A model generated the notes under the pieces. The model was given only the letters and a program-made list of their open reading frames with translations, was not told the origin of the DNA and ran no database searches. Positions 14,715 to 47,852 of a stretch of 51,009 nucleotides of DNA are shown here, in pieces; the stretch's first letter is position 1, and each line of letters begins with the position of its first letter. Made by a program: the position numbers and the translations under genes. Source of the stretch: an uncultured archaeon (GTDB taxonomy: Archaea; Asgardarchaeota; Lokiarchaeia; Sigyniarchaeales; SOKP01); assembly GCA_964632315.1 (NCBI GenBank), contig CAZWEM010000034.1, positions 1 to 51,009 on the forward strand. The letters are read 5' to 3'.

Positions 14715-15683
14715 ATGGAATTTCAAGATAAAAGGATTGTAGTAACGGGAGCTGCAGGGTTTATCGGTAGTAATTTAGTTGATAGATTACTTGATTTGGG
14801 AGCAGAAGTTATAGGAATAGATAATTTATATAATGGTAGGATAGAAAATTTAGAACTCGCTTCCCAAGACCCCAAGTTCAAGTTTTATCGTGGTGATATA
14901 AGAGATTTAAATTTCTTAATTGATGTGTTCGAAGGTGTGGACGTTATATACCATCAAGCAGCATTCACAAGCGTACCTCAGTCCGTTATTATGCCTAGTA
15001 ATTGCAATGATGTAAACGTGAATGGCACACTAAACGTGTTAAATGCAGCACGAAAATGTGATGTGAACAAAATTATATATGCTTCTAGCTCCTCAGTATA
15101 TGGAGATACCCCAACGCTTCCCAAAAGGGAAGATATGCCTCGTGTTCCAATTTCACCATACGGTGTAGCTAAATTAGCATGTGAGGCATACATGGAAGCG
15201 TATCATAATGTATACGGATTGAATACTACTTCATTGCGATATTTTAATGTTTTTGGACCAAGACAAAAGGATTCTCCGTATAGTGGAGTAATAGCAATTT
15301 GGTTAGGTTGCATTCTCCGGGATGAGGATTTGGCAATATTTGGAGATGGTAAAAATTCAAGAGATTTTACATACATCAAAGATGTGTTGGAAGCAAACAT
15401 ATTAGCAGCAACGCATAATACACCTGGAGAAATCCTGAATATTGGGGCAGGTTCTCCCATAACATTGACAGAGTTAGCCAAGATAATGCTTAAACTAGCT
15501 GGTAAAGAAAATCTTAGCATCAATTATGCAGATCCAAGACCAGGAGATATTATTCACAGTTATGCTGATATTTCTAAGGTAAAGAAGTTATTAAAATTTG
15601 AGCCAAAATATAATCAAGAAGAAGGATTAAAAGATTATTTTAAATGGTATCAACAGAAATATGATGTTCACTTGATAAAATAA
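14715..15683 (+). CDS. NAD-dependent NDP-sugar epimerase (UDP-GlcNAc/GlcNAcA 4-epimerase, WbpP/TviC-like)
   Basis: TGAAGFIGS, HQAA..SVP.S, ASSSSVYG, PYGVAK, LRYFNVFGPRQ, Y.GVI, SRDFTYI. Confidence 0.9.
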   Translation: MEFQDKRIVVTGAAGFIGSNLVDRLLDLGAEVIGIDNLYNGRIENLELASQDPKFKFYRGDIRDLNFLIDVFEGVDVIYHQAAFTSVPQSVIMPSNCNDVNVNGTLNVLNAARKCDVNKIIYASSSSVYGDTPTLPKREDMPRVPISPYGVAKLACEAYMEAYHNVYGLNTTSLRYFNVFGPRQKDSPYSGVIAIWLGCILRDEDLAIFGDGKNSRDFTYIKDVLEANILAATHNTPGEILNIGAGSPITLTELAKIMLKLAGKENLSINYADPRPGDIIHSYADISKVKKLLKFEPKYNQEEGLKDYFKWYQQKYDVHLIK

Positions 15684-15702
15684 AGTTCTATAGAGTCTTA
15701 GG

Positions 15703-31018: not shown

Positions 31019-32968
31019 CTATCTTTTTGGAATTTCAAGATATTCAGGTAAAGAAGGGAAATTCTCAAGCTTTAAATGAGGAAAGTACATGGCCTCTGCG
31101 TATTCCCTTTGAAAGTTCTCTTGAACGGCGATTTCTACATATTTAATTTTCTTTAACAACTCTTGCGTCTTCTGTCGTAACTTTGTATTTATCAAGCAAT
31201 GTTGTGCACCCATACCTGCGGCATTTCCAATTTGATAGATTTTTTCATCAGAGATATCAGGAATCATCCCAATGAATTTTGCATTCTTTTTATCAATGTA
31301 ATTGCCAAATGCTCCTGCTAAAAAAATTTGATGGATTTTATGATGTTTTTCTCTCGTGCGATTTAAAAAATTAAGGATTAAATTCGTTCCCGAATAAAAC
31401 GCTCCTTTTGCCATTTGAATTTCTCTAATATCTTTTTGCGATATGACTATGGGTTTTCCAGAAGCTGTATCTTCTTTGGGGGCTAATATGAATTGAAAAT
31501 TTTTCTCTTTTTGTATAAATCTTTCATGGTCTATAAATTCCTTGTTGAAACGTCCACTTCGAGTAATAATCTTAGACCGTAGCATTTCGGCAACAGCATC
31601 AATCAAACCAGAACCGCAGATTCCCATTGGCTTTTTATCGTTAATTGTTGTATACTCAACATAAAAGGTATCGGGATCTATTTTCACAGAGTCAATTGCT
31701 CCTGCTGCTGCTCGCATTCCATTTGAGATATGAGCCCCTTCTAAAGCAGACCCTGCAGCACAAGAACCTGTTATTAATACATCTCTATTTCCAATAATGA
31801 TTTCACCATTAGTTCCTATATCTATGGCAAGTGTTAATTCTTTTTCTTTATCAATTTCAGAAGAAAGAATTACTCCTACCGTATCTGCTCCAACAAAGCC
31901 CGCTATCAAGGGTAGTACATAAGTGTTACCGTTTCGAGCCATATTTAACCCTAAGGAGTGAGAATCAAAATTTAGTCCCGTTTGAATAGCTGGAACATAT
32001 GGACTTAAACCAATATAGCTTGGATTGATTCCTAAAAAAAGATGATGCATGACAGAATTACCAACGATGGTAGCTTCATAGATATTTGAAATTGAAACTT
32101 TTGTTTCTTTACTGGTTTTTTCAATTATTTTGTTTAGTGCATCAATTACTAATTTGTTTAAAGTTTCTAGTCCCTTGGGGGTGTCTCTTGCATAAGTGAT
32201 CCTGGTGACAACATCCTCTCCAAAAGCAGTTTGGGGGTTGAGTGTTGAAGAAACAGAATAAGTTTTACCATCATTAAGATTCATTAAATACCCCACTATG
32301 GTTGTTGTTCCTATATCAAAGGCAATTCCATAGTTATCTTGAGAAGTATCACCCGATTCAATATCAATAATCGTTTCTTTTTCTTTAAAAGTCAAAGTTA
32401 AATCATGATCCTTATGCCTAAGAATATCGGGTAATCTCTTTAGGGCATCATATTCAATCTGTATTGGTGTTCTTCCCATTGGTTGATAAGATCTCAATAT
32501 TCTTTCAAAATCGGGTACAGGATCATTCAATGAAGGTTTTTTTACATTTACATAGAACTTTTTTATGTTAGGAAGAAGCTTTATTCTTTTTTCTACTCCC
32601 GAGGTTAGTATCTTGAAATCTTCAATTAGAATCTCGTCTGGCAAAAAGATTCGAATTTCTAAGGGTTTATTATTCGATTTTTCAATTTTTTTTGGATCTA
32701 ATTTTACTTGGCAAGCTAATCTCCAACCATCTTCTATTTCAGTTTTAGTTAACTTTTCCAACTCCGAGTTTGATGGATTATTGAGATGCTGGGATCCTTT
32801 TTGAATTAAAACCTTACATTTTCCACACGTTCCTTTTCCCCCACATAGAGAGCTAATTCTCACTCCTGCGTGAGAGAGTGCGTCATAAATTGATAAATCA
32901 TCTGCATATAAGATCCTTCTGGAGATTGGTTCGAAATCTAAAATTATATTCCTATTATTTTGAGTCAT
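31019..32968 (-). CDS. RACo/ASKHA-type ATP-dependent reductive activator of corrinoid proteins (DUF4445) with N-terminal [2Fe-2S] domain
   Basis: CGGKGTCGKC...RLACQ; DIGTTT; FGEDV.TR; GFVGAD; DIGTNGE; CAAG.ALEG; GICGSG; LAGAFG; GNAA..GA. Confidence 0.93.
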   Translation of the reverse strand: MTQNNRNIILDFEPISRRILYADDLSIYDALSHAGVRISSLCGGKGTCGKCKVLIQKGSQHLNNPSNSELEKLTKTEIEDGWRLACQVKLDPKKIEKSNNKPLEIRIFLPDEILIEDFKILTSGVEKRIKLLPNIKKFYVNVKKPSLNDPVPDFERILRSYQPMGRTPIQIEYDALKRLPDILRHKDHDLTLTFKEKETIIDIESGDTSQDNYGIAFDIGTTTIVGYLMNLNDGKTYSVSSTLNPQTAFGEDVVTRITYARDTPKGLETLNKLVIDALNKIIEKTSKETKVSISNIYEATIVGNSVMHHLFLGINPSYIGLSPYVPAIQTGLNFDSHSLGLNMARNGNTYVLPLIAGFVGADTVGVILSSEIDKEKELTLAIDIGTNGEIIIGNRDVLITGSCAAGSALEGAHISNGMRAAAGAIDSVKIDPDTFYVEYTTINDKKPMGICGSGLIDAVAEMLRSKIITRSGRFNKEFIDHERFIQKEKNFQFILAPKEDTASGKPIVISQKDIREIQMAKGAFYSGTNLILNFLNRTREKHHKIHQIFLAGAFGNYIDKKNAKFIGMIPDISDEKIYQIGNAAGMGAQHCLINTKLRQKTQELLKKIKYVEIAVQENFQREYAEAMYFPHLKLENFPSLPEYLEIPKR

Positions 32969-33140
32969 GAGCTTGAAATCCGGAGATCTATTTTTTTAAA
33001 AAAGATTTGAAATGAGATACTGTTTAATTTTTAAAAAATATTATTAATCTATAAAATTTTCTTAATAAAATAGAAAGAGCATTTTTTAGAATGCAATATC
33101 TTCTATTATTATAAGAATAATCCAATTGGTTAATAAAATC

Positions 33141-36100
33141 ATGGAAAGAAATGAAAGTACAGCTCAAGAGGCTTTGAAATATTTAGATAATGCCCAAATA
33201 TTAGAAGAAAACGGGAAGCTAGAAGAAGCAATCGAAAATTACTTAACAGCTGCTGATTTTTTGAAAAAAAGTGGTTTCGCGGTTACAAGAGTAAATGATA
33301 TTTACGAGAGGGTTCAAGAATTAAAAGATTTTATTAGTAAGGAAAAAACATTAAGGCAAGCTCAGCTTGGTGCTCAATTAGAACAATTGCAAGAAAGAGC
33401 ATTTTCACTTTTAGACGCTGCTAATAAATTTGAAATTAGAGGTCAACTCAACGAAGCTATTGGGCAATATAATTCTGCCATTAATTTACTAGTTAACGCT
33501 GGATGGTCTGATATGCAATTAGAGAATTTGAGAGAAAAGGTGAATTCTCTTACTCTAAAACATGCTAAGAGCCAACAACAAAGCACCCAAAACATTGAAG
33601 GGGCGGAAACACAATTATCTCAGGCCCAAGTTGTTGGAGCATTTGGTAAGAAAAAAGACGCTGTAAAGGCTGAGGAACTACGTAAATTTTCAGAAGCTAA
33701 AGCCAAAGAAGAGAAAATCCAAAGTGATGCTTTCATTTACATTGATAACGCAAAATTTTATGAGCAAGATAGAAAATATGATAAAGCTATCGAGGCTTAT
33801 AAAAATGCAATTAATTTATTAAATTCTATAGGATGGCATAGTCAAACAAGTCAACTAGAATCAATTGTAGCCAAATTGGAAATAGATAAACGGAATTATG
33901 ATTCATTCAAGGAATCAAAGAAAGTTCGTAGTGGTGGAATTGAATATATTGAAGACTCTACTACAGAAAAAGAGAAAGAATTTCAAAAATCAGTAAAAAT
34001 TATTGAAGAACAGAAGGTAAATGAAGAGAAAATTCAATCGGAGGCTTTCAACCTTATTGATGAAGGGAAAAGCATGGAAAAAGAGCAAAATTATGATGAA
34101 GCTTTGAAGAAGTTCAGCGCAGCAATAAATTTATTTAATTCGATTGGATGGGATTCTTACATCCAGCCTGTAAGAAATTTAATCAAAGATATTAATGAAA
34201 AAGTTGCTCAAGAAGATAAGTTCAGAACTTTGAAGGAAAAGAGAGAAGTTGAATTAAAAAAAGTACAAGATTCCATTTATTTAAAAGAACAAGACGAAGT
34301 TCACAAAGAAACGAAAGAAATGGAAGAAAAACGAAAACTATTTGAGAAGAAAAGGGAACATGATTTACAAAAGGAAAAGGAACTTTTAGAGTTAATCGAA
34401 GAAGCAGATAAAATCGTCAAAAATGAGGATTTTGATGGAGCTATCACTAAATATCGGGAAGCTTTAAATCTAATAGGAAACTTGGGGCCTGGTTGGGAAT
34501 CATATAAAAATATGATTAACACAACCATCGATAACATAAAGAACCTTAAAGAAAAAAAATTATCTAGGGAAATCGAAACACAAAAGAAATTGGAGGAGCA
34601 AAATAAGCGAGACATGGAATTTCAAAAGCAAATGAATGAATTACTTAATCGAGAGCGTTCTCGCTTGAAAAAGGAAGAAGTTTCCATGCAAGCAAAAGAA
34701 GAATTATTCAAAAAAAGAGAACAAGGTAAAAAAGAGGCTTTTGAAATTTTGGAAAAAGCCCAAAATTATGTCAAATCTGGAGATCTAGATAATGCAATCC
34801 TCTCTTACCAAAAAGTAGCAAATAAATTTGCTGAAATACAATGGACTGATGAAATTCCAGTCATTGAAAATTCAATTCAAGAACTTCAAAAGAAAAAGGA
34901 AGAAAAAAAAGAATTAAAAAAAAGAGAGATGGAACGATCTATCCAGAAGATGAAAGAAGAGCAGGAATTTCAAGTACAAATTTTCAAGCAACTTAAATTA
35001 GAACGCAATAAGATTAAAGAAAAAGAGATTTCCATAAAAATAAAGGAGGAAGAAAAAAGTCATCAAGAACAACGGAAAAAAGGATTGTTTAGCATATTGG
35101 AACAAGCACAAGATCTTTTAATCCAAGGCGATTTTGATGATGCTATCAACAAGTATAATGAAGTCGTAAAAGTAATGGCAGAAATGCAATGGCATGACGA
35201 AATTGCACTGATACAAAATTCGATCTTAGATATCGAGAGAAAAAAGCGTGATTCACAATTACAAAAAGAAAAAGAATTAAGACAGAAAATCAAGAGAGAA
35301 CAAGAAGAACAAGAGTTTCAGAACCAAATAATTGACCAAATGCGTATACATCAAGAAAACTTAAAACAAAAGCAAATAGTAATTCGAGAAAGAGAAAAGG
35401 AGTTAGCGCACAGAGAAAAAATGAAGGGAAAAGCATTTGAATTATTGAATAAAGCTCAAGATTATTTGGCTATTACAAAATTTGATGAGGCCATTGATTT
35501 ATATCGAGATATAGCAAAAATATTTGCCCAAATTCAGTGGAAGGAGGAAATAGCATTAATTCAGCAATCAATTCAAGAGATTGAAAGAAAAAAAGTAGAA
35601 AAAGAAGAATGGAAACAAAAAACCATGCAGGATACCATAAAAAGAGAAAATGCTTACAAAGAATTTATCGATCAGATAAAACATCAAAGAGAAATTGAAC
35701 AAATTAGAATAGAAAAAGAGCTTGAATTGGTTGAGAAAAAGAAACTCCTTGATGCTGATAGTATTAAGAGACAAGATAATGCACTTAAATTGATTGAAGA
35801 AGCAGATGAGTTAATTCAACAAGAGAATTACAATCTTGCAATAATTAATTATGAAAATGCAGTGAAAATCCTAGAGGAGATTGGTTGGACAGGAGGGTAT
35901 TTGAATTTGTTACAAGAGACATTAGACACTATTAGTGCGAGGCAAAGAGAAAAGTTAGCTGAAAAGCAAAAGCAAGAAAAAATCTTAAAAGAAAAGCAAA
36001 AATCAGAAGAAGCCTTCCAAAAGAAATTGAGAGCAACAATGGAAGCAGAACAAAAACGCTTGCGATCAAAAGTAATTGAAATTCAAAAAAAGGAAGAAGT

Positions 36101-39100
36101 AAAGGTTCACGCAGAAAATCAAAAAGAAAAAGCGTTTAATTTATTAGAGGATGCTGAAAGATTACTAAATCAAAGAAATTATGAGGATTCAATAAAGCTG
36201 TATAGAGAATCGGAAATTATTTTAGCTGAAATTGAATACCCTACGGATATAATTAGAGAAATGATCCGCAAAATAGAGGTTCGAAGAAAAGAGGAAGAAC
36301 TTGCAAAAATTAAAGAGTCGGAGAAAGCCATTTTAGAGGAGAAAGAAGAAGCTGAGTTTCAAGAAAAAATTCAAAAGGTAATGCAGGAAGAGACTAAAAA
36401 ACTTCGAGATAAGCAGATAAAATTAGAAGAACAAGAAAAGCGCAAAAAATTATTAGAAGAAAGAAAGCAAGAGGCTTTTGAAATTTTAAATAAAGCAGAA
36501 GAAGAAGTCAGTATAAAAGCATACGAAAAAGCCCTTGCTTTGTATCGTAAAGCAGAGTTGATTTTAAATGAGATTCGATTTCCAACAGATTTATTAAAAG
36601 ATACAATTCGAAAGTTACAAATTAAAAAGAGCGATGAAGATCTTCTTAAGCAACAACAACTTGAACGTCAGATTGAAAAACAAAAAGAGGAAACAATTTT
36701 CCAAAATAAGATCTCGGATGGAATAAGAAGGGAAAAGAAGAGATTACGAGAAAAAGCAATGCTTTTAGAGAAAAAAGAGGAAATGACGAAAATTCATGAA
36801 AAATTACAAAATGAAGCTTTTAAGTTATTAGATTTAGCTCAAGAGATGACAGTTACGAGTGATTTAGAAGGTGCAATAAACAATTATAAGAAAGTAATGT
36901 CAATTTTTGAAGATATCGGTTGGAAGGATGAAATTCCCTTATTGAAAGAATCGATCCAAGTCTTAAGAATGAAACAAAATGAACAACAGACCTCTCAACA
37001 AAGTCAATTAGAGCAAAACCTGAAAATAGAAAAAGAAAACTCTGAATTTAACAGGATAATAGCTGAGCAGTCTCAACTTGAAAGAGAAAGATTATTAAAA
37101 CAACAAATTGAGTTAAGAGAAAGAGAAGAGGAGTTACAATTCCGAGAAAAAAGAAAAAATGAAGCCTTTATTAAAATTGATGAAGCTAATGAACTGGTTG
37201 AACTGGGCAAGTTTGAAGAAGCAAAGAGATTATATCTTGAGGTAGAAGATATCTTTGCAGAAATCCAATGGATAGATGAAATAGATATGATTCATAATTC
37301 AATAATAGAGATTGAGAAGAGAAAATGGGATAATCTTGTCAAAAAGCAAAAAGAATTGCAAGAGGATTTATATTTTGAGAAACTTGTACAAGATTTTCAA
37401 AACCAAATAGCACAAGAAACTCAAATTGAACAAGAAAAAATTAGAGAGAAAGAAGTAACGCTAAGGGAAAGAAAAGCAGAACTCAAATTGAGAGAAAATG
37501 AAAGAATTAAAGCATTTGAACTGCTTGATAAAGCAAGCAATTTGGTTGAATTGAAGAATTATGAAGAAGCTATAAGTATATATCGTGATGTTTCGCTAAA
37601 GTTTGCTCGAATCGGTTGGACTGAAGAAATTTCCGTAATAAATCAAGCAATTTATGATGTAGAGAAGAAGAGGACCGAAGCTGAATTGCTAAAACAAAGA
37701 GAGATCACAGAATCAGGTAAAAAAGAGAGAGAACGCTTACAGTTCATTAATAAGATTAAAATCGAAAGGGAGAAAGAAAAAGAAAAACTGAAGGAACAGA
37801 GAGAAAGAGTTGAAAAATTAGCAAAGCTTAAGGAATTAGGGAGTAAAAAACAAGAAATAGCATTTAAAAAGATAGAAGATGCAGATGATCTTATAAGACG
37901 TGAAGATTTTAATGAAGCAATTCAACTATATGGTCAAGCTCGTGATATCTTAAGTGAGATTGGCTGGACAGGCAGTTATATAAACCTGATCAATGAGAGC
38001 ATTGAATTTTCAAAGCTAAAAGTAATAGAAGTAGAACGTAGAAAAGAAAAAGAGAAAGCTTTAATCCAGAAACAAGCAGAAGAGCAAAAGATTTTTGAAG
38101 AAAGGTTAAAAAAGCAAGCAGTGGATGAACAAGAGAGATTGAAAAAGAAACGATTTGAAATTCAAAAAAGAGAAACGTTCACTAAATTATTGGAACAAAG
38201 AAAAGAAGAAGCTTTTAAAATAATGACACAAGCAGAATCTTTGTTGGAACAAGGATTATATGAAGAGTCATTAGGAAAATATAATGATGCTGAATTGATC
38301 CTCAGCGAAATTAATTTTCCAACAGATGCTGTACAAGAAATGGTTCAAAAAATTCGATCTAAAATTCAAGAACGAATCTTAAATGAACAAAGGGATTTGG
38401 AACTAAAAATACGAAAGGAAGAAGAAGATAAGAAATTCCTTAAGAAAGTATCAGAAGAAACACACAGAAAGGAGGAGGAGCTAAGGAAAAAGAAAGTTCA
38501 ATTAAAGAAACAAGAAGAACTTAGAGATTATATGGAAAAAAGAAAAACTGAAGCTTTTGATTTGTTAGATAACGCAGAAAGTTTAGTGAAAGAAAATGCA
38601 TATGATAGAGCTCTAGAATATTATAATAGGGCAGAAGTGATATTAAATGAAATCCAATTTCCAACTAATACTATCCGTGGTATGAGAGAAAAAGTAGCAT
38701 TTATGCAAAAGAAGAAACAGACCGCAGTATATAATGATCTCCAAACAAGGTTACGAAAGTCTCATGAAGAAAAAGAATTCCAACAGAAACTAGCAGAAGA
38801 AACCCTCAGAGAAAAACAAAGACTTGAAAATAAGAAGATCGAAGTCAGAGAAAAAGCATTTAAACAAGCAGAAATCGAAAAGCAAAAAGAAAGGGCATTT
38901 TCACTTTTAGATGATGCTAAATCCCTAATAGAAAAAGAAGATTTTGATGAAGCAATTGAGTTATATCGTAAAGCCATGCTTATTTTAAATGAGGTTCAAT
39001 TTCCTACAGGAGCTTTAGATGATATGATTAGAAAAATAATGCTGAAGAAAAAAGAGAAGGAAGAAATGGAAGAACTCGAATATCAACGTAAAGTTGATGC

Positions 39101-40163
39101 ATTTAAACGAGATAAGCAAATGGAAGTCATGATTCAAGAAAGAAAACGACAAGAAAGGGAACAAGCAGCAGCAAGAGCAGCGGCATTAAAGGAAAAAGAA
39201 AGATTGGTCCAAGAACAGATTAATTTTCGAGAAGCTGCATATTCTCTCTTAGAAGATGCCGATAAACACTTAAAAAAACAGGTTCCAGATTATGACAGAG
39301 CAATTTCACTCTACATTCAAGCCAGAAACACTTTATCTGAAAAAGTCGGATGGGAACCCGAAATCAACAATATCACCATGCTTATTAAGGATCTAGAAAA
39401 AGAAAAGAAGAATTATATTGAACGGAAGCAGTTAGAACGGGATTTAGCACTAAAAAGACAGAAAGAGTATGAAATTTTTCAAAACGAAGTAAAAAAGCGA
39501 AAGGAAGAATATGAGAAACAAAAAGCACAACAAGAACAAAAATTGCGTGATCTTTATCTTTCAAAAAGAAAGGCAGAAAAAATGAAAGAAGAGGGGTTAG
39601 CGTTAATAGACAGTGCCAAAGAATACGTAATTAACAGGGAATTTAATAAAGCATATGATGAATTTAATGATGCCATTAAAAAATTCACACAAATAGGTTG
39701 GACGGAACAGGCAAAATATATCAAAAAAGAAATAGAAAATGCTAAAGAAATAGAACAAAAGTTTAAGGATGAACGTTTAAAGTTAAAACAAGTACATGAA
39801 GACTTGTTAAGAAAGAAACAGAAGGAAGAGAGATTAATTAAAAAGAAAGAGCAAGAACTAAAATCGACTATTTCTGATGTAAGTGATCTGACTGGAGAGA
39901 TATCGGATGTAATTAAAACTAAAAAGCTGGAAATCGAAAAGAAAGAAAAAGAAAGGAAAGAAAAGATCAAACTAGATGCTAAAGATTATAGAAAAAGCAT
40001 GTCCGAAATGATACAGTTAAAGCAAGAATTGATTGAGGAAATTAAAAATTCGGAAGTAATGCTCAAAAAAGAACGAGAAAAGCATGAGATTGAAAAGGAT
40101 AAGGAAAAAGCAGAAGAAATTAAAAGAATGTTGAAGGATATATCAAAGAATAAAAAAACTTGA
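33141..40163 (+). CDS. Giant (about 2340 aa) alpha-helical repeat protein: 20 TPR/MIT-like units joined by charged coiled-coil segments
   Basis: Recurring AFxxLxxA...(Y/F)xxAIxxY...I(G/Q)W or I.(F/Y)P motif about every 115 aa, with E/K/Q/R-rich spacers. No TM or signal peptide. ORF is open from TTG 33126. Confidence 0.85.
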   Translation: MERNESTAQEALKYLDNAQILEENGKLEEAIENYLTAADFLKKSGFAVTRVNDIYERVQELKDFISKEKTLRQAQLGAQLEQLQERAFSLLDAANKFEIRGQLNEAIGQYNSAINLLVNAGWSDMQLENLREKVNSLTLKHAKSQQQSTQNIEGAETQLSQAQVVGAFGKKKDAVKAEELRKFSEAKAKEEKIQSDAFIYIDNAKFYEQDRKYDKAIEAYKNAINLLNSIGWHSQTSQLESIVAKLEIDKRNYDSFKESKKVRSGGIEYIEDSTTEKEKEFQKSVKIIEEQKVNEEKIQSEAFNLIDEGKSMEKEQNYDEALKKFSAAINLFNSIGWDSYIQPVRNLIKDINEKVAQEDKFRTLKEKREVELKKVQDSIYLKEQDEVHKETKEMEEKRKLFEKKREHDLQKEKELLELIEEADKIVKNEDFDGAITKYREALNLIGNLGPGWESYKNMINTTIDNIKNLKEKKLSREIETQKKLEEQNKRDMEFQKQMNELLNRERSRLKKEEVSMQAKEELFKKREQGKKEAFEILEKAQNYVKSGDLDNAILSYQKVANKFAEIQWTDEIPVIENSIQELQKKKEEKKELKKREMERSIQKMKEEQEFQVQIFKQLKLERNKIKEKEISIKIKEEEKSHQEQRKKGLFSILEQAQDLLIQGDFDDAINKYNEVVKVMAEMQWHDEIALIQNSILDIERKKRDSQLQKEKELRQKIKREQEEQEFQNQIIDQMRIHQENLKQKQIVIREREKELAHREKMKGKAFELLNKAQDYLAITKFDEAIDLYRDIAKIFAQIQWKEEIALIQQSIQEIERKKVEKEEWKQKTMQDTIKRENAYKEFIDQIKHQREIEQIRIEKELELVEKKKLLDADSIKRQDNALKLIEEADELIQQENYNLAIINYENAVKILEEIGWTGGYLNLLQETLDTISARQREKLAEKQKQEKILKEKQKSEEAFQKKLRATMEAEQKRLRSKVIEIQKKEEVKVHAENQKEKAFNLLEDAERLLNQRNYEDSIKLYRESEIILAEIEYPTDIIREMIRKIEVRRKEEELAKIKESEKAILEEKEEAEFQEKIQKVMQEETKKLRDKQIKLEEQEKRKKLLEERKQEAFEILNKAEEEVSIKAYEKALALYRKAELILNEIRFPTDLLKDTIRKLQIKKSDEDLLKQQQLERQIEKQKEETIFQNKISDGIRREKKRLREKAMLLEKKEEMTKIHEKLQNEAFKLLDLAQEMTVTSDLEGAINNYKKVMSIFEDIGWKDEIPLLKESIQVLRMKQNEQQTSQQSQLEQNLKIEKENSEFNRIIAEQSQLERERLLKQQIELREREEELQFREKRKNEAFIKIDEANELVELGKFEEAKRLYLEVEDIFAEIQWIDEIDMIHNSIIEIEKRKWDNLVKKQKELQEDLYFEKLVQDFQNQIAQETQIEQEKIREKEVTLRERKAELKLRENERIKAFELLDKASNLVELKNYEEAISIYRDVSLKFARIGWTEEISVINQAIYDVEKKRTEAELLKQREITESGKKERERLQFINKIKIEREKEKEKLKEQRERVEKLAKLKELGSKKQEIAFKKIEDADDLIRREDFNEAIQLYGQARDILSEIGWTGSYINLINESIEFSKLKVIEVERRKEKEKALIQKQAEEQKIFEERLKKQAVDEQERLKKKRFEIQKRETFTKLLEQRKEEAFKIMTQAESLLEQGLYEESLGKYNDAELILSEINFPTDAVQEMVQKIRSKIQERILNEQRDLELKIRKEEEDKKFLKKVSEETHRKEEELRKKKVQLKKQEELRDYMEKRKTEAFDLLDNAESLVKENAYDRALEYYNRAEVILNEIQFPTNTIRGMREKVAFMQKKKQTAVYNDLQTRLRKSHEEKEFQQKLAEETLREKQRLENKKIEVREKAFKQAEIEKQKERAFSLLDDAKSLIEKEDFDEAIELYRKAMLILNEVQFPTGALDDMIRKIMLKKKEKEEMEELEYQRKVDAFKRDKQMEVMIQERKRQEREQAAARAAALKEKERLVQEQINFREAAYSLLEDADKHLKKQVPDYDRAISLYIQARNTLSEKVGWEPEINNITMLIKDLEKEKKNYIERKQLERDLALKRQKEYEIFQNEVKKRKEEYEKQKAQQEQKLRDLYLSKRKAEKMKEEGLALIDSAKEYVINREFNKAYDEFNDAIKKFTQIGWTEQAKYIKKEIENAKEIEQKFKDERLKLKQVHEDLLRKKQKEERLIKKKEQELKSTISDVSDLTGEISDVIKTKKLEIEKKEKERKEKIKLDAKDYRKSMSEMIQLKQELIEEIKNSEVMLKKEREKHEIEKDKEKAEEIKRMLKDISKNKKT

Positions 40164-40166
40164 GTC

Positions 40167-41666
40167 TCATTTTCTCTGACGTTTCCAATATAAACTGCTA
40201 ATATAGACCAAACCTGCTATGTTAAAAATCATAACACCAAGAAGAATTAGGCTTCTTAAATCAATGATCAATATGATCTCAAACCCTCCAGAACTTTTAA
40301 CACGAGATTTTAATACCAAGTAATAATCATGAGTATCAGTTAAAAATACTCCCATCCTTTTAGATATATCGATGCTATTTATTGAATTTGATACTAATTC
40401 AGGGGTACCATCTTGATTAGGTGTCTTATCAAAAAGATATAGTTCTGCTGGAAGGGAATCTTTTTGAATTACCTCAAAAAAATAGTGATTTGGATTTAAC
40501 CGAACAGGTTGGCAAAATACACTATAATTTTCATTAAGTTCGACTTGGAATTTAGTATTTTGAGTTAACGTGAGAGGTGGATCTAATGCTGCTAAAGCCG
40601 CATATCCTTGGATTATACCCCATCCCTGACGATTGTCGCTTATAAACAAGGGATCAATTGTCCGATAAGACGAAAGAGAGATGATATTTTTTAATTCAAA
40701 AGGATTTAAGTTTGGATTTTTTTCTAACATTAATGCTGCTAATCCGGACACAAAAGGGGTTGATGCTGAAGTTCCTGAGGCATAGGCAAATGAATTGCCA
40801 GGATATGCTCCATAAATAGATACACCTGGTGCACAAACATCTGGTTTTCTATAACCCTTATATGTCGGCCCTATACTACTTTTAGAATACATTCCACCAC
40901 TATTATCCACTCCTCCAATAGTGAGAACTGATTCTGAAGACCCTGGTGCGTTAATAGTTCTAATTCCCTGATCTCCATCATTTCCAGCAGCAGCAACTAC
41001 CAAAATTCCAGCATTTACAAGTTTCTCCACAGCGGTATCTATTTGATTGATGTATTGCAAATCATTTGTAGTTGGTTTTATCCCAAAACTCATGCTCGCA
41101 ATACTGACATTATAGAGATCTTTATTATTAAGCAACCAATCTACAGCCCGTTCCAATATGGAGGGTGTAGTCACTACTTGACCACCCCCAATATCTTTAA
41201 ATATTTGCATTATCACGAATTTTACTCCTGGGGCTACTCCTTGATAAGCTGTAGAGTTACCTCCTAAAATTGAAGCCGCCCACGTGCCATGCCATAGGAC
41301 TTCTGTCGGATTTGGAGATAATCCATCAGTTGATTCACTATAAAATGCAATTATTCGTTCTGACCAATTTATCTTCCCATCATTAGTAAATACTTGATGA
41401 TTTGGGGAGATGCCTGTATCTAACACGGCAACTGTGACTCCTTTTCCAGTCAAATTACCGTTCCATAGACTGGGAGACAATCCAATAAGATCTTGGGCAT
41501 CGAAACAAACTTTCATATCATCTGAAGATCTTATCATCTCATCATGATTTACGTTTTGCGAGGGAGCATCTATTGACACAAATGTTTGCTGAGATGGTTG
41601 GAGAAAAATTATTCCTAAAAGAGGTGAGAAGATGATGAAAAATTGGATAAGATGGATTCTGTTCAA
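40167..41666 (-). CDS. Subtilisin-like S8 serine peptidase, signal peptide plus C-terminal TM anchor
   Basis: Catalytic triad VAVLDTG / HGT / GTSASTP; oxyanion AAGN; KPDVCAPG. Confidence 0.93.
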   Translation of the reverse strand: MNRIHLIQFFIIFSPLLGIIFLQPSQQTFVSIDAPSQNVNHDEMIRSSDDMKVCFDAQDLIGLSPSLWNGNLTGKGVTVAVLDTGISPNHQVFTNDGKINWSERIIAFYSESTDGLSPNPTEVLWHGTWAASILGGNSTAYQGVAPGVKFVIMQIFKDIGGGQVVTTPSILERAVDWLLNNKDLYNVSIASMSFGIKPTTNDLQYINQIDTAVEKLVNAGILVVAAAGNDGDQGIRTINAPGSSESVLTIGGVDNSGGMYSKSSIGPTYKGYRKPDVCAPGVSIYGAYPGNSFAYASGTSASTPFVSGLAALMLEKNPNLNPFELKNIISLSSYRTIDPLFISDNRQGWGIIQGYAALAALDPPLTLTQNTKFQVELNENYSVFCQPVRLNPNHYFFEVIQKDSLPAELYLFDKTPNQDGTPELVSNSINSIDISKRMGVFLTDTHDYYLVLKSRVKSSGGFEIILIIDLRSLILLGVMIFNIAGLVYISSLYWKRQRK

Positions 41667-41764
41667 TTGATATCCTTTAAGAGCGTATATTTATTTATTT
41701 TTATTTATATACTTATATTTAATTGTTTTCATTAAAATAACTAAAAAAGATTGCGGTGTTTAAA

Positions 41765-43348
41765 ATGGTAGAAAATAAAGACGAGATTTATAAATCTCGA
41801 ATGTTTGCTCGTCAACAATTGATTGAGGGATGGAATCAAGCCACTCTTGAAAATGGTTGTATAATGATTGTCGGAGTTGGTGCTCTTGGATGTGAAATTG
41901 CGAAAGATTTTGCATTGATGGGTATTGGGAAACTCATTCTGGTTGATTTAGATACGATCGAGATTTCAAATCTATCCCGACAGATGTTATTTCGCCCAGG
42001 AGATGAAGGAAAACCGAAGGCAGAGGTTGCAGCTGAGCGTATCAAAGAAATGAATCCATACTTGAAAGTTGATTTTTACTTTGAAAAATTGCAGAAGCTC
42101 CCTGTTGCTGTCTTTGAAGAAGCTGATGTAATAATTGCCGCTTTAGATAATTTTAACGCTCGAATGGATTTGAATAAATTGTGCCTAAGACTAAAGAAGC
42201 CAATGGTGGAAGGAGGAACTGTAGGATTTGAAGGTCATGTCCAAATCGTGATTCCCGAAGGATCGGGAATACAATATAAAGAAAGGGAAAATGAAGTAGA
42301 AAAAATAGTTCAAGCTAAGCTATGGGAACTTGATGATGTTGAAAATACTCAATATTACAATGCTTTGCGAGAGATCGAGGATTTAGAAGAAAAGATTGAA
42401 ACTATTAAAAAAAATAAAATTCAGCCCATTATAAATAGCGTTCGTGCTCAGGTGGAAGAGGAATTCGACAGAGTTTACGCCGAAAAAGTCTTAAATGTTA
42501 CTCCTTGTTATCGTTGTTTAGTACCTATACCTCCTGCGGATGATAAACTTGTCGCGGCATGTACTCTTAAAGGCTTACCGAGAAATAGGAATCATTGTGT
42601 TATAAAAGCAGAGGTAAATTTTGAAAAAGAAAATGGGTTTAAACCAGATATGAATTTAGATGAAGATGTTCTCAAATTAAAAGAATTAGCTCAAAAAGAA
42701 TTAGAGCAGCTACGTGAGAGAGTATTTAAGGAAAATATTCCTGAAGAAAAACTTGAAAGTCTTAGTCCTGAAGAAATTCAAAGTTGGAAAGAAAACATAG
42801 AAAATACTTTTGGTCCTGATTTTAAATTTGAAGAGATGGAAAATATCTTAGGTAATAAAATAGCTGCCGTACAGACTGTTAGCTCGGTCATTGCTAGTAT
42901 TCAATCACAAGAGGCATTGAAGCTATTGTTTAGAGTTAATGGTCGAGATATTGGAGGGCCCATGGATCCTCCCTATGTGAATTATAATGGGGTATATGGT
43001 TTATTTGATCATCTCGATATATTAAAAAGGGACGATTGTTTAGCATGTGGGAAAATTGAAGGAGAAGAAAATGTTCAATTAGTAGTGCCATTTGATGCGG
43101 ATATCGGATACATTTTCAAGGCAATGAGGATCATAGGCTATAATTTAGATCCTATATTGTGGATGATAACTAATCCCGTATCTAAAGAGATCTATTGGAA
43201 TCCTTACATGCCTTCCATGAAAGATAGTAGCATTCTTTTAAATTCATTGGACGTGAAAAATAATGACATCTTATCCCTCACCCCCCTTGGAAAAGCAAAA
43301 ATAGAATCTGAAATCAAGAAATTTAATTTAATAATCACTTACATGTAA
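41765..43348 (+). CDS. Ubiquitin-like protein activating enzyme E1 (ThiF/UBA family, UBA2/UBA3-like)
   Basis: F.RQ, GVGALG.E, DLDTIEISNLSRQMLF, ALDN..AR; zinc pairs CYRC and CLAC; catalytic ACTLKGLPRNRNHC; GNKIAAV..V.SVIA. Confidence 0.88.
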   Translation: MVENKDEIYKSRMFARQQLIEGWNQATLENGCIMIVGVGALGCEIAKDFALMGIGKLILVDLDTIEISNLSRQMLFRPGDEGKPKAEVAAERIKEMNPYLKVDFYFEKLQKLPVAVFEEADVIIAALDNFNARMDLNKLCLRLKKPMVEGGTVGFEGHVQIVIPEGSGIQYKERENEVEKIVQAKLWELDDVENTQYYNALREIEDLEEKIETIKKNKIQPIINSVRAQVEEEFDRVYAEKVLNVTPCYRCLVPIPPADDKLVAACTLKGLPRNRNHCVIKAEVNFEKENGFKPDMNLDEDVLKLKELAQKELEQLRERVFKENIPEEKLESLSPEEIQSWKENIENTFGPDFKFEEMENILGNKIAAVQTVSSVIASIQSQEALKLLFRVNGRDIGGPMDPPYVNYNGVYGLFDHLDILKRDDCLACGKIEGEENVQLVVPFDADIGYIFKAMRIIGYNLDPILWMITNPVSKEIYWNPYMPSMKDSSILLNSLDVKNNDILSLTPLGKAKIESEIKKFNLIITYM

Positions 43349-43398: not shown

Positions 43399-44007
43399 TT
43401 ATGTTTGATAATTTCTTACATATTCAATGAGTTCGTCCACATAGTAGGAATCTACGTTAGCCGCTTCACCAGCTATTAGATCTTTCTTCATATCTCCAAA
43501 AAAGATTAGTTCATCGGGTGAAATTGAGAAATGATTTATTAATTTAATTAAACCCTCGGGTTCGGGTTTCCAACTGCGTACATCTTCTCTGCCTATCACT
43601 TTCTCAATAGAATCTGAAAGTCCTGCGATCATTAATGATTCTTTAATAGTTTGTCTTGTATTCAATGATAATACAGCGATTTTCATATCATTTGAAATTC
43701 CAAATCTTTCTTTATTTTTGATAAAATCTACGATTTCAGGGATGATTTCAGTTTCAGTTATATTCTCAAGCTCATATTGACGAATAATCTTAAAATTTTT
43801 TTGTAATTCTTCTTCATCCCCTTTTTTCACTATATTACTCAAGCATTCAGAGATGCTTGAAAAAGCACAACTTTCTTGATTTTTTTCAGAATAGCGCTTA
43901 GAGAGCACATCCTTTAATGCATGCCAATTTGCTTTTAATCTCACTATAGTTCCGTCTAAATCAAAGACTATAACTTTTTTACCTTTAAAGATGTTTTTTT
44001 GTTTCAT
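43399..44007 (-). CDS. HAD-superfamily hydrolase (phosphoglycolate phosphatase-like)
   Basis: FDLDGT, LSLN, KPEPEG, FGD...D..AG..A. ATG 44007 preferred over 44052. Confidence 0.88.
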   Translation of the reverse strand: MKQKNIFKGKKVIVFDLDGTIVRLKANWHALKDVLSKRYSEKNQESCAFSSISECLSNIVKKGDEEELQKNFKIIRQYELENITETEIIPEIVDFIKNKERFGISNDMKIAVLSLNTRQTIKESLMIAGLSDSIEKVIGREDVRSWKPEPEGLIKLINHFSISPDELIFFGDMKKDLIAGEAANVDSYYVDELIEYVRNYQT

Positions 44008-44273
44008 TTCATTCAGATTGTATAATATTAGGGGAAAATTAAACACGCTCATTTGAGGGATTTCGGATGAGTTCTATATCATACACACATTATCAATTTT
44101 ATCAAAAAAAATGTTCTCAATTAATAAAATATTCAATTGAAATTTACGAAAAGCAACTAATTTTTTAAAACTATATGTGAAATTTTAGTTCGTGACTAAA
44201 AACTAAAGTATTAATGGTTCTATAAATTGACATGAGTATCTTTATATGTTATTTTTAGTATTTCTTTAATAGA

Positions 44274-44624
44274 ATGGGAGAAAATAAGTCATATTATGAA
44301 ATTCTTGAGATAGAAAAAAACGCTTCTGAGAAAGAAATTAAGCTAGCATATCATAGATTAGCTAAAAAGTATCACCCTGATCTTAATAAAAACGATCCAA
44401 AAGCTAAAGAAAAATTTATTGAGATTAAGAATGCTTATGATACCCTAATTGATCCAGAGAGGAGAAAAATTTATGATCAGTTAGGATACACTCCAAGAAA
44501 TATTGATTTTAGTGATATCTTTCAAAGATATGACTATAGAAGCATAAGAGAGATTCTGAGAGAAATTTTTGGAGTACGTCATTCTTATTATAATAAACCA
44601 CCTCCAGAAGGTATGTACGTTTAA
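44274..44624 (+). CDS. Stand-alone J-domain (DnaJ-like) protein
   Basis: YYEILEI...[16 protein letters not shown]...A.EKF.EI..AY..L.DP..R..YD; no zinc finger or C-terminal domain. Confidence 0.92.
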
Positions 44625-44727
44625 ATTATCTTCTTTTTAAAGGTTTTTTAAATTATAACCTAATTTTATAGTTAGATTATTTTACTAACGAGATTCATTA
44701 AAAAATACACTTTACTGTTTAGAATTT

Positions 44728-45324
44728 ATGGATTATGTGAAAGTATATAAAAAGAAAGTCGTTTTTAATGGAGAAGTGCTTAATTTAGAAAGCTACAAAA
44801 TTAAAAAAATAAATGATATCAAGAAGCTCCAAAAGCATTATAATTTAAGAGAATTATATTTAGAAAAAAACCAAATACCTAATTTGCAGGGTTTAAAGCC
44901 CCTTATTAATCTGGAAAAACTGCATTTAGAAGCGAATAAGATTAGCAAAATTGAGGGTTTAAAATATTTGGGGAATCTTAAAGAACTCGAGTTGAGGGGA
45001 AACCAAATTACACAAATCGAAGGATTAGAAACATTGACTAATTTGAAAGATCTTGACTTATCTTATAATCAAATCAGAGAAATTGAGGGCTTAGAGACAT
45101 TACTCAACCTCGAGAGATTAAACTTGAGTCATAATAACCTTTTAGAAATAAAAGGTTTAAACAACTTAAAAAACTTGAAGCAATTATATCTTTCTCACAA
45201 TAATATTTCCTCCATAAAGGGCTTAGAAAATCTACCCAGTTTAAATCATATTGAATTGAATGACAATCCCATTTCAAATAAAAACATTATCTCAAATTTT
45301 AAAGATTTAGAAGTAATAATTTGA
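44728..45324 (+). CDS. Leucine-rich repeat protein (SDS22-like 22-aa repeats)
   Basis: About 7 repeats of LxxLxLxxNxIxxIEGLxxLxN. Confidence 0.92.
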   Translation: MDYVKVYKKKVVFNGEVLNLESYKIKKINDIKKLQKHYNLRELYLEKNQIPNLQGLKPLINLEKLHLEANKISKIEGLKYLGNLKELELRGNQITQIEGLETLTNLKDLDLSYNQIREIEGLETLLNLERLNLSHNNLLEIKGLNNLKNLKQLYLSHNNISSIKGLENLPSLNHIELNDNPISNKNIISNFKDLEVII

Positions 45325-45373
45325 ATAAAAAATAAGGATTAAAATTAATAAAAAAGAGTAGTTGCTACAGTAT

Positions 45374-46570
45374 TTAAAATTCAATTAATTTGTGTAATTT
45401 TTCACGTGAAACCTTATTTCCCTCGGATATTATTATTTTGGCTTCATCAACTTTATCCCAAACATTCCAGAATAATACACCTTTTACTTTATCGTCCTTT
45501 AAGTAATAAAGGATGCCTTCCTCGAACGGTTCTTTCCATACTTCTTCAATCTTTAATCTAGGATCTAATAGTCCAACTGCTTCATAACCATAATCGAATA
45601 AATCGGAATAAAAATATGATAATAGGTGATACTCATTTTCCTGACCCGTCATATTTTGACCGGCGGTCCATCCCATATTGATCGCATTGTCTTCATGCTC
45701 TACTCGTATTTTGGTATCTAAGGCCGGCACATAATAGCGAACAACATCTCCAGCAGCATATATATTTTTATCTCTTGTTTGAAGATACTTATTTACGACT
45801 ATTCCATCGTCAACTTCCAAATTCATTTCTTTTGCTAGTTTAGTATTAGGATTAATGCCTAAACCGGCGATAACCGCATCAAATTCCATCTTTTTCCCAT
45901 TCTTGGTCTCAACAATATATTTCTCCCCTTGTTTTTCTACTCGTGAGACGAATTCTCCAGAGAGAACATTTATCCCCTTCTCTTGATAATATTCATTCAG
46001 AAATTTGCTTAATTTCTCGGGGAAAATGAGACCACCAATCCCATATTCAGGAAAGATAATCGTAATCTCTGCGCCTGGTTTGTAGATTTTAATTCCAGCA
46101 GCTATTTCAGATCCTATGAAACCTCCTCCTATGACTCCAAAACTGTTCTTTTCATTAACTTTTTTGCGTAGTGTTTCAAAATCTGCTAAGGATCGGTAAT
46201 AGATAATTCCTGGGACTTTAATATTTGGAATTTCTTTCGGCGTTCCGCCCGTTGCAATAAGTAGTTTTTCATAGCTATATTCATCTCCATTCTCAACAAA
46301 TGCTTTTTTTTTGTCAGGATCAATTTTGGATACGGTTTGATTAAGATGGAATTCAACATCAACTTCAGCAGTTCCTAAATAAATATCATCCAACTCTTCT
46401 TCACCTTTCCATAAATCCTTCGATAATGGTGGACGAGCATATGGTTCCGAATTCTCTTTGCTGATTATCCCAATAGTTCCTTCTGAATCAATTTCACGAA
46501 TAGCTTGAGCCGCTGAATCAGCAGCCATTCCACCACCAATGATTAAATACTTGTAATTATAAACGGTAAT
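45374..46570 (-). CDS. FAD-dependent pyridine nucleotide-disulfide oxidoreductase (ferredoxin reductase / MDAR / AIF-like)
   Basis: PY.RPPLSK, LLIATGG, IGGGFIGSE, IYAAGD, RVEH, YFYSD. The FAD-binding YLIIGGGMAA lies upstream of ATG 46528 and needs a start at ATT 46570. Confidence 0.9.
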   Translation of the reverse strand: MTVYNYKYLIIGGGMAADSAAQAIREIDSEGTIGIISKENSEPYARPPLSKDLWKGEEELDDIYLGTAEVDVEFHLNQTVSKIDPDKKKAFVENGDEYSYEKLLIATGGTPKEIPNIKVPGIIYYRSLADFETLRKKVNEKNSFGVIGGGFIGSEIAAGIKIYKPGAEITIIFPEYGIGGLIFPEKLSKFLNEYYQEKGINVLSGEFVSRVEKQGEKYIVETKNGKKMEFDAVIAGLGINPNTKLAKEMNLEVDDGIVVNKYLQTRDKNIYAAGDVVRYYVPALDTKIRVEHEDNAINMGWTAGQNMTGQENEYHLLSYFYSDLFDYGYEAVGLLDPRLKIEEVWKEPFEEGILYYLKDDKVKGVLFWNVWDKVDEAKIIISEGNKVSREKLHKLIEF

Positions 46571-46943: not shown

Positions 46944-47852
46944 GTGCAGAAATCTAAATCGAGTCACCATCAATTTTATGAAAGAGAAAATTGTTGCGAT
47001 AATCCGAGTTATAGAATTAAGAATGGACAAATAGTGTGTATCAATTGCGGAATGATTTCAGGACAGTGCTTTGTCACCCATGAAAAAAGAGCTTATACAA
47101 AATTAGAGGTTAATAATAGGAGACACAATGAACCCGCTTGGAGAGAATTTGGTCCAAGAACAATGTTATCAACAAATAACTGTGATTTCCAAGGAAAAAC
47201 TTTGAGTGCTAAGAGCCGAACTTTGATGACAAGATTGATAAAAATCCAAAGATCATTAGTAAATTCATTAGAACGAAATTTTTGGGAAGCAAAGCCAAAA
47301 TTGAAAAAACTTGCTTATAAAATTAACATACCAGCTTATATTCAAGATACCGCTTGGAGAATATATTGCGAGGTTGCAAAAAAGAGATTAACAATGGGGA
47401 GGTCAATTGATGGATTTGTAAGTGCCTCCTTGTATGCTGCGATTAGAGTTCATGGGTATCCCAAATTACTTGAAGAAGTGTGTGAAGGTTCAATGGTACC
47501 CCAACGTACCTTCTTTCGTTCCTTAGGAATGATTGTCAGAGATATATTACCCATTTTGGATTATCATTACCAACCGATTTCTGAAGACCAGCTTATTTTC
47601 TTGATTGGGAATAAGCTAGGTTTTCCGATGGATGTACAGATGGAAGCGCTTAAAATAATGAATCGTGCTTTTAAGAACAATTCTGCCACAATCGGAAAAG
47701 ATCCTAAGGGTATAGCTGCTTCAACCCTTTATGTAGCTGCTAAGAGATTCCACATGAATAAAACTCAAACGGAAATTTCAGATGCAGCAAAAATCACGGA
47801 AGTAACTCTAAGAAGTCGGTTAAACGATATCAAACATTTTATAAGCTATTAA
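46944..47852 (+). CDS. tfb: Transcription initiation factor IIB (TFB) paralogue
   Basis: Zinc ribbon CC...VCINCG; two cyclin repeats (GRSI...A.LY.A.R; GKDPKGIAA..LY); C-terminal TQ.EI..AA.ITEVTLRSR. Confidence 0.92.
   Translation: MQKSKSSHHQFYERENCCDNPSYRIKNGQIVCINCGMISGQCFVTHEKRAYTKLEVNNRRHNEPAWREFGPRTMLSTNNCDFQGKTLSAKSRTLMTRLIKIQRSLVNSLERNFWEAKPKLKKLAYKINIPAYIQDTAWRIYCEVAKKRLTMGRSIDGFVSASLYAAIRVHGYPKLLEEVCEGSMVPQRTFFRSLGMIVRDILPILDYHYQPISEDQLIFLIGNKLGFPMDVQMEALKIMNRAFKNNSATIGKDPKGIAASTLYVAAKRFHMNKTQTEISDAAKITEVTLRSRLNDIKHFISY

Follow-up and report, generated by a model that had tools for sequence, protein, structure and literature searches.

Contig CAZWEM010000034.1 of an uncultured lokiarchaeal genome (order Sigyniarchaeales, GenBank assembly GCA_964632315.1) was analysed over 51,009 nucleotides (nt), here called the window, and it raises the question of which pathway is served by the gene at 41765..43348 on the plus strand. 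A sequence-only reading had taken the gene product for an orphan, eukaryote-style ubiquitin-activating enzyme (E1), a homodimeric intermediate between MoeB-like and canonical E1s that might define a separate conjugation pathway with an unknown modifier. The proposed open reading frame (ORF) was recovered, ending at 43348 and offering start codons at 41756 (GTG) and 41765 (ATG), the latter yielding 527 amino acids (aa) plus a stop. Every quoted motif was located as well: RQ at aa 16-17, GVGALG at aa 37, TPCYRC at aa 246, ACTLKGLPRNRNHC at aa 265, GNKIAAV at aa 363, DCLAC at aa 424 and NNDIL at aa 499. The window has the GC content of a low-GC archaeon (~32%) and carries a TFIIB gene at 46944-47852, and database homologues of the protein bear the names Lokiarchaeota or Promethearchaeota. 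Six ThiF-family genes were detected in the genome by profile search, and contig C29 harbors a complete operon with genes for a ubiquitin-like protein (Ubl; C29:17446-17775), an E1 (C29:16133-17374), a conjugating enzyme (E2; C29 ~15546-16091) and a JAB protein (C29 ~14942-15283). As this full operon includes its own E1, the window protein is a second E1 and was termed E1-B. With a probability of roughly 70%, E1-B is a working ubiquitin-type E1 in a second cascade beside the C29 operon, together with an E2 (E2-B) and a Ubl (Ubl-B) that are encoded elsewhere in the genome.

The domain composition of E1-B was derived from a Pfam scan, structural models and an alignment of 54 sequences (termed A2), consisting of 23 E1-B family members and 31 shorter archaeal E1-like proteins. 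Pfam returned a single ThiF domain (9e-59) that is interrupted by inserts. Its N-terminal part (41765..42265, aa 1-167) contains R16-Q17, the G37xG39xxG42 ATP loop, D61/D63, K85 and D128, all of which are invariant or nearly so in A2. A charged helical insert follows (42266..42499, aa 168-245), which was modelled as two helices (174-186 and 196-242) at a low predicted local distance difference test score (pLDDT, 50-66). The first CxxC pair of a presumed zinc site (42506..42517; C248 and C251, nearly invariant in A2) precedes a helical catalytic Cys domain (42536..42844, aa 258-360), the C-terminal part of the adenylation domain (42845..43057, aa 361-431) with the second CxxC pair (C425 and C428 at 43037-43048) and a C-terminal ubiquitin-fold domain (UFD; 43058..43345, aa 432-527). 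The cysteine that had been singled out at 42560 is C266 (codon TGT at 42560-42562); this candidate catalytic residue is invariant in all 54 sequences. The charged helical insertion noted ahead of TPCYRC is real and proved to be specific to the family, since residues 170-244 (75 aa) are occupied in 23/23 family members and in 0/31 of the shorter E1-likes. It was found only in members from the window's own family (f1) and its sister family (f2).

Structural comparisons support the assignment of these parts. A full-chain AlphaFold2 model built from the 54 aligned sequences reached a mean pLDDT of 80.6, and a Foldseek search with the full chain listed UBA3 first (2nvu_B, 2e-26), followed by UBA6, SAE2 and UBA1. 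Residues 6-527 could be aligned end to end with UBA3 and SAE2 by VIA-align. Matches to PDB sequences were led by the active adenylation domain of UBA1 (1e-40), followed by UBA6 and UBA7, UBA3 (1e-29), UBA2 (1e-27) and MoeB (1e-23). The segment from TPCYRC to ACTLKGLPRNRNHC aligned to SAE2 residues 155-195, which places C248/C251 on C158/C161 and C266 on Cys173 of SAE2. When the last 96 residues were folded alone (pLDDT 91.2), the top 27 Foldseek rows were all UFDs of E1 enzymes with template-modelling (TM) scores of 0.54-0.68; the best matches were the SAE2 UFD (3ong, 4w5v and 5fq2; TM 0.65-0.68) and then the UBA6 and UBA3 UFDs. E-values were weak for the isolated UFD (3e-3 to 2.5e-2) and for the Cys-motif fragment alone against PDB sequences (0.9), and both domains are assigned because the top rows are consistent and the whole chain aligns. 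Two proposals made from the sequence thus held up: that E1-B is a eukaryote-style E1 that has a catalytic Cys domain, and that it ends in a ubiquitin fold, here a beta-grasp domain. By homology, it is very likely that E1-B acts as a real ubiquitin-type E1.

E1-B orthologues form more than 120 clusters (at 90% identity) with 73-92% identity over the full length and therefore E1-B is not a chance ORF. Phyletic counts, here and below, are based on 301 sampled genomes of the phylum. Full-length E1-B is present in f1 and, at 49-55% identity, in 7/7 genomes of f2, while two further families of the same class hold only a shorter relative; E1-B is accordingly confined to one order, or to one class if the shorter forms are counted. 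In a quick maximum-likelihood tree with support from the Shimodaira-Hasegawa-like approximate likelihood-ratio test (SH-aLRT), the E1-B family forms a clade at 100%, which is joined at 99% by the f2 type and an 800-aa fused form described below. This clade is nested among the ~400-aa archaeal E1-likes (SH-aLRT 93-99), has terminal branches of 0.04-0.12 compared with a median of 0.8 and is separate from the operon E1 of the same genome, from the eukaryotic UBA1/UBA2 clade and from the MoeB-like outgroup. In this tree, which does not include UBA3, E1-B is not the closest archaeal relative of the eukaryotic E1s. Its place apart from the outgroup means that E1-B does not group with the sulfur-transfer enzymes MoeB and ThiF, and the Foldseek, whole-chain and Cys-region alignments agree. 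The proposal of an intermediate between MoeB-like and canonical E1s was not supported as stated, as a single chain that starts with an RQ motif is nothing special to E1-B: all ~400-aa archaeal E1-likes have this layout, and so does the operon E1, which displays RQ, CxxC, AACT..PR..HC, CxxC and a C-terminal tail without the insert. Judged from the sequences, the distinctive trait of E1-B is its 75-aa insert and not this layout.

Synteny was compared over ~84 orthologous E1-B loci to place the gene in its context. A gene for an E2, here E2-B, lies 0.03-8 kb downstream of E1-B on the opposite (-) strand in 63-65 of about 84 loci. E2-B matches Pfam UQ_con (3e-26), keeps the HPN motif and the catalytic Cys, carries a 13-residue insert after that Cys and is 84-99% identical between f1 genomes. 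It was detected in 62/68 genomes of f1, 6/7 of f2, 1/1 of f3 and 0/224 elsewhere, a range that matches that of E1-B, and shares only 39% identity with the operon E2. Its best matches are Ubc1 and Ubc4/UbcH5; a NEDD8-type identity was also considered and was not borne out, the NEDD8 E2 UBE2F being no closer. In the window genome, E2-B was moved and is encoded outside the window on the minus strand of contig C3 (G000:C3:12520-13117, corresponding to L118:6521-7118). Calling E1-B an orphan is consequently correct for the window only, as the family has a syntenic and co-distributed E2 that is present in this genome. Synteny and co-distribution make it quite probable that E2-B is the dedicated E2 of E1-B.

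Three inserts (31, 30 and 30 nt) break the frame of E2-B in the window genome, at residues ~68, ~78 and ~134. In relatives, introns of this kind occur in varying combinations at these three positions and at residue ~61, four sites in total, and 53 loci are uninterrupted. The inserts were compared with the bulge-helix-bulge (BHB) motif, defined by a 4-bp central helix and two 3-nt bulges, in which a cut after the second bulge nucleotide restores the frame. Twelve inserts were available from the four sites, three from the window genome and nine from elsewhere; all four central pairs are formed in 11 of them and three of four in the remaining one. Predicted excision restores the conserved frame in all 12, and the hairpins are kept even though the insert sequences differ. 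RNA contigs of at least 99% identity, assembled from two metatranscriptome runs of one study, cover only L118:6670-6835 and are joined from 6835 back to 6670. These positions are the predicted 3' cut of intron C and the predicted 5' cut of intron D, which are separated by a 166-nt exon, and a DNA run reads straight through intron D. As the RNA is joined at predicted cut sites while the DNA is continuous, this internal exon (exon 3) is cut out and circularised in vivo. The RNA evidence comprises two of the six predicted cut sites, in runs that covered only part of the E2-B gene. A second type of RNA contig (91% identical) represents a circle of exons 2 and 3 from a relative without intron C, and a contig from run X20 (93% identical) with continuous exons represents either spliced RNA or an intron-less relative. 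The introns are presumably cut by the tRNA splicing endonuclease. BHB-like inserts were also observed in E1 genes: five orthologues (L092, L105, L102, L107 and L059) contain a 30-nt insert with stops after codon 41, which splits the ATP loop between GVGAL and GCE and whose inner helix shows compensatory changes between genomes. The E1 gene of the window is uninterrupted.

A candidate modifier is encoded on contig C8. Ubl-B (G000:C8:32905-33156, plus strand) is an 84-aa protein that matches Pfam ubiquitin (4.8e-10), is 92-98% identical within f1 and carries an invariant G82-G83, after which the 26 aligned orthologues have 0-2 variable residues. It was found in 58/68 genomes of f1, 7/7 of f2, 1/1 of f3 and 1/1 of f4, and otherwise only weak matches (1e-6) in one family were obtained. 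As a control, the operon Ubl was detected in many more Asgard families (f7, f12, f16, f18, f24 and f30). An orthologue with 86% identity to Ubl-B, and only 17% to the operon Ubl, is located at L030:351-608, 0.7 kb upstream of the gene for P0123 (L030:1291-3693). P0123 has 800 aa and two ThiF domains in a UBA1-like fused pseudo-dimer layout, is 46% identical to E1-B and falls inside the E1-B clade; it comes from a single metagenomic contig, and a search of the 301 genomes returned no further fused two-domain E1 closer than ~35% identity. Co-folding of E1-B with Ubl-B gave a score of 0.18 (mark 0.32), which counts neither for nor against binding. No Ubl gene recurs near E1-B, and the earlier verdict of an unknown modifier can now be narrowed to Ubl-B as a strong candidate on account of its narrow range and the adjacency to P0123. 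Co-distribution and this one adjacency are suggestive and tip the balance towards Ubl-B being the modifier of E1-B.

Other explanations of the locus were weighed against these data. E1-B and E2-B might be a second enzyme pair for the operon-type Ubls, with Ubl-B being activated by the operon E1 or remaining unconjugated. Several operon-type paralogues are available for such a pair (C29:17446-17775, C39:14032-14358, C29:19598-19936 and a membrane-anchored one). None of the 84 loci points to a recurrent Ubl gene beside E1-B, and eukaryotic UBA6 is a second E1 that shares a modifier with the first (PMC9378703). However, the operon Ubl occurs in many Asgard families without E1-B and E2-B, the range of Ubl-B is as narrow as theirs, and it is Ubl-B, unrelated to the operon Ubl, that adjoins an enzyme of the E1-B clade in L030. 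A pair serving the operon Ubls is therefore regarded as unlikely, though it retains some weight. Decay of the pathway in the window genome is a considerably weaker candidate. It would account for the loss of the E2 neighbour from E1-B and for a displaced E2-B that is interrupted three times by stop- or frameshift-bearing inserts and would then be a pseudogene, and the RNA runs gave no linear spliced message for this strain. Outside the inserts, however, E2-B of the window genome is 95% identical to its orthologues over residues 70-173, each of the three inserts conforms to the BHB geometry and the exact frame returns once they are excised. The RNA contigs of at least 99% identity end and join at two predicted cut sites through which the DNA reads run, and the E1-B gene is undamaged, its product sharing 80% identity with the closest orthologues from the genus.

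The explanation that appears least credible is a MoeB/ThiF/Uba4-type activator of sulfur carriers (for molybdopterin, thiamine or tRNA thiolation) in which the extra domains are decoration. In fold, the adenylation core does come nearest to MoeB and ThiF (Z 31.9 and 31.8, 30% identity), with MoeB 1jw9_B superimposing at a root-mean-square deviation (rmsd) of 1.7 A over 234 residues in VIA-align; the N-terminal RQ motif is present and the public name of the protein is "molybdopterin/thiamine biosynthesis adenylyltransferase". Yet E1-B stays far below every NCBIfam cut-off for MoeB, ThiF, MoeZ and UbaA (at best 137.3 bits compared with 275 for ThiF, and 109.5 compared with 450 for UbaA), it contains a Cys domain and a UFD, and its synteny is with an E2 and not with ThiS or MoaD, no ThiS match being obtained on the window's contig C34. 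Compact MoeB-like genes are furthermore present in the genome in two copies, of which one adjoins a ThiS-like gene on contig C5, and these branch apart from E1-B in the tree.

Several observations weigh against a second cascade built on E1-B, E2-B and Ubl-B. The Pfam models specific to E1 enzymes (UBA_E1_SCCH, E2_bind, UAE_UbL and E1_UFD) do not match E1-B, and the eukaryotic control proteins P0143 and P0257 do match them. The tree was computed without UBA3, and neither E2-B nor Ubl-B is linked to E1-B in the window genome. The adjacency of Ubl and E1 stems from a single metagenomic contig and concerns a fused relative rather than E1-B itself, the shared distribution, being limited to a single clade, reflects very few independent events, and E1-B might instead serve the four further Ubl paralogues of operon type that the genome encodes. 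A linear exon-exon junction of E2-B from this strain was not found in the RNA runs. The evidence for the proposed cascade consists of architecture, conservation, synteny, co-distribution and the RNA cuts.

In the cascade that we infer, from catalysis and dimer state to the E1-E2 and E1-Ubl pairings, the adenylation domain of E1-B would bind ATP-Mg and the Gly-Gly tail of the Ubl and form an acyl-adenylate, as expected from its homology with MoeB, UBA3 and SAE2. The N-terminal arginine motif of MoeB reaches into the ATP site of the partner chain and, following this precedent, E1-B is presumably a homodimer in which R16 of one chain completes the ATP site of the other. C266 in the inserted Cys domain would then take over the Ubl as a thioester, and the UFD would recruit E2-B, to whose catalytic Cys the Ubl would be passed. 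In the window genome, the E2-B message would have to be freed of three BHB introns for this purpose. Ubl-B, which ends in the invariant Gly-Gly, is the most likely modifier, and the Ubl-B/E1-B/E2-B cascade would be confined to one class of Lokiarchaeia, in parallel to the Ub-E1-E2-JAB operon on C29. The separate conjugation pathway that had been suggested from the sequence thus probably exists beside the operon pathway, with its own E2-B, its candidate Ubl-B and the same narrow range of all three.

The neighbourhood of E1-B was analyzed as well. Profile searches of contig C34 for ubiquitin, UQ_con, JAB and RING gave no match, in line with the earlier statement that no ubiquitin, E2, E3 or JAB gene is adjacent, and no gene for a partner subunit recurs near E1-B in the 84 loci. 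Upstream of E1-B are the genes for a RACo-like Fe-S/ASKHA protein (31019..32968, minus strand; RACo_C_ter 3e-93; 60/84 loci) and a giant protein of 2345 aa with MIT and TPR repeats (33126..40163, plus strand; Pfam MIT 7.5e-22 and TPR families; 74/84 loci). The giant gene is on the same strand as E1-B and displays a strong strand skew in G and A. An optional subtilase gene (40167..41666, minus strand; Peptidase_S8 9e-49), found here in 17 loci, separates it from E1-B. A HAD-family hydrolase is encoded downstream (43399..44052, minus strand; HAD_2 7e-24; 64/84 loci), usually between E1-B and E2-B, and is weakly PpaX-like (74.7 bits, under the PpaX cut-off). MIT domains are ESCRT-III binders. Any part played by the helical insert, the MIT/TPR giant (perhaps through ESCRT-III) or the HAD hydrolase (perhaps by removing pyrophosphate) is speculative. 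Behind the HAD gene, the region 44274-46528 encodes a J-domain-only protein, a small leucine-rich repeat protein and an AIF-like FAD reductase. This DnaJ arrangement is common to only 4 related loci, and it marks where, in the window genome, a rearrangement took place and the E2 disappeared from the locus. In the neighbourhoods of E2-B and Ubl-B in this genome, no protease, E3 or other pathway genes were found.

Elsewhere in the genome, the region G000:C29:14900-20400 holds extra Ubl paralogues beside the operon. Paralogues were mapped to C29:19598-19936 and C39:14032-14358, and one is fused behind a predicted membrane segment (C29:18775-19581). At a contig edge (G000:C95:3-587), a weakly E2/RWD-like protein (UQ_con 19 bits) with a Cys-rich, RING-like C-terminus was observed.

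The ubiquitin systems of Asgard archaea are generally presented as a single operon, and both the Asgard E1-likes and the operon system were already known (PMC5654768, PMC9192718). A description of a second E1/E2/Ubl set was not found in the literature searched, whose partial coverage is not proof of absence. If the second cascade exists, modifier-specific cascades, a hallmark of eukaryotes, also diversified within Asgard archaea, and three small, highly conserved proteins would be open to in vitro testing. In vivo tests are conceivable because one Ubl-B orthologue carries a name from Ca. Lokiarchaeum ossiferum and a closed 4.4-Mb genome of the sister family f2 (G213) holds the E1-B, E2-B and Ubl-B genes. 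The link to the MIT-repeat giant and the splicing of the E2 mRNA suggest unexpected layers of control. A more far-reaching and tentative picture, on balance doubtful as a whole, would be that Lokiarchaeia maintain two separate ubiquitin-type cascades in the manner of ubiquitin, NEDD8 and SUMO. The second would consist of a hyper-conserved trio with dispersed genes and a unique helical arm on its E1, would be tied to the MIT/TPR giant (with a possible ESCRT-III link) and would depend on tRNA-type mRNA splicing to make its E2 and, in some relatives, its E1 as well.

E1-B can be compared with several known systems. MoeB and ThiF share its adenylation fold, and their tetracysteine zinc site and N-terminal arginine motif are also present in E1-B, which differs by the added Cys domain, UFD and helical insert, by the linkage to an E2 instead of ThiS/MoaD and by scores under all NCBIfam cut-offs. 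The operon E1-likes of Caldiarchaeum and Asgard archaea, of which the Caldiarchaeum subterraneum-type system has been reconstituted (PMC5654768), resemble E1-B in the single chain, the RQ motif, the CxxC pairs, AACT..PR..HC and a beta-grasp-like tail, and E1-B nests among these ~400-aa enzymes. In contrast to them, the E1-B gene is located outside a Ub, E2 and JAB operon, the protein is ~115 aa longer owing to the 75-aa insert and a longer Cys domain, its separate clade has far shorter branches, it is paired with a different E2 and it is confined to one order (one class with the shorter forms).

The catalytic subunits of the NEDD8 E1 (UBA3) and the SUMO E1 (UBA2, that is SAE2) have a domain order identical to that of E1-B: adenylation, CxxC, Cys domain with a CT...PR..HC-type motif, adenylation, CxxC and UFD. 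They are also its best whole-chain fold matches, with C266 on Cys173 of SAE2 and a UFD like those of SAE2, UBA3 and UBA6. E1-B is nevertheless only 17-28% identical to them, carries the 75-aa helical insert before the first CxxC and leaves the Pfam E2_bind, UAE_UbL and SCCH models unmatched. Whereas UBA3 and SAE2 act with APPBP1 and SAE1, no such partner is evident for E1-B, whose arginine motif is on the same chain, a placement that suggests a homodimer. E1-B does not branch with the eukaryotic E1s in the tree without UBA3, and its E2-B is not specifically of the NEDD8 type. For the introns of E2-B, a precedent is provided by the cbf5 pre-mRNA of Crenarchaeota, which contains a BHB intron (PMC2738675). 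Both cases represent short, tRNA-type introns inside an archaeal coding sequence, in the window genome that of E2-B and not of E1-B. E2-B differs from cbf5 in that three introns are accommodated in one 520-nt gene, in that their presence varies between genomes over four sites and in that an internal exon was recovered as a circle in RNA data.

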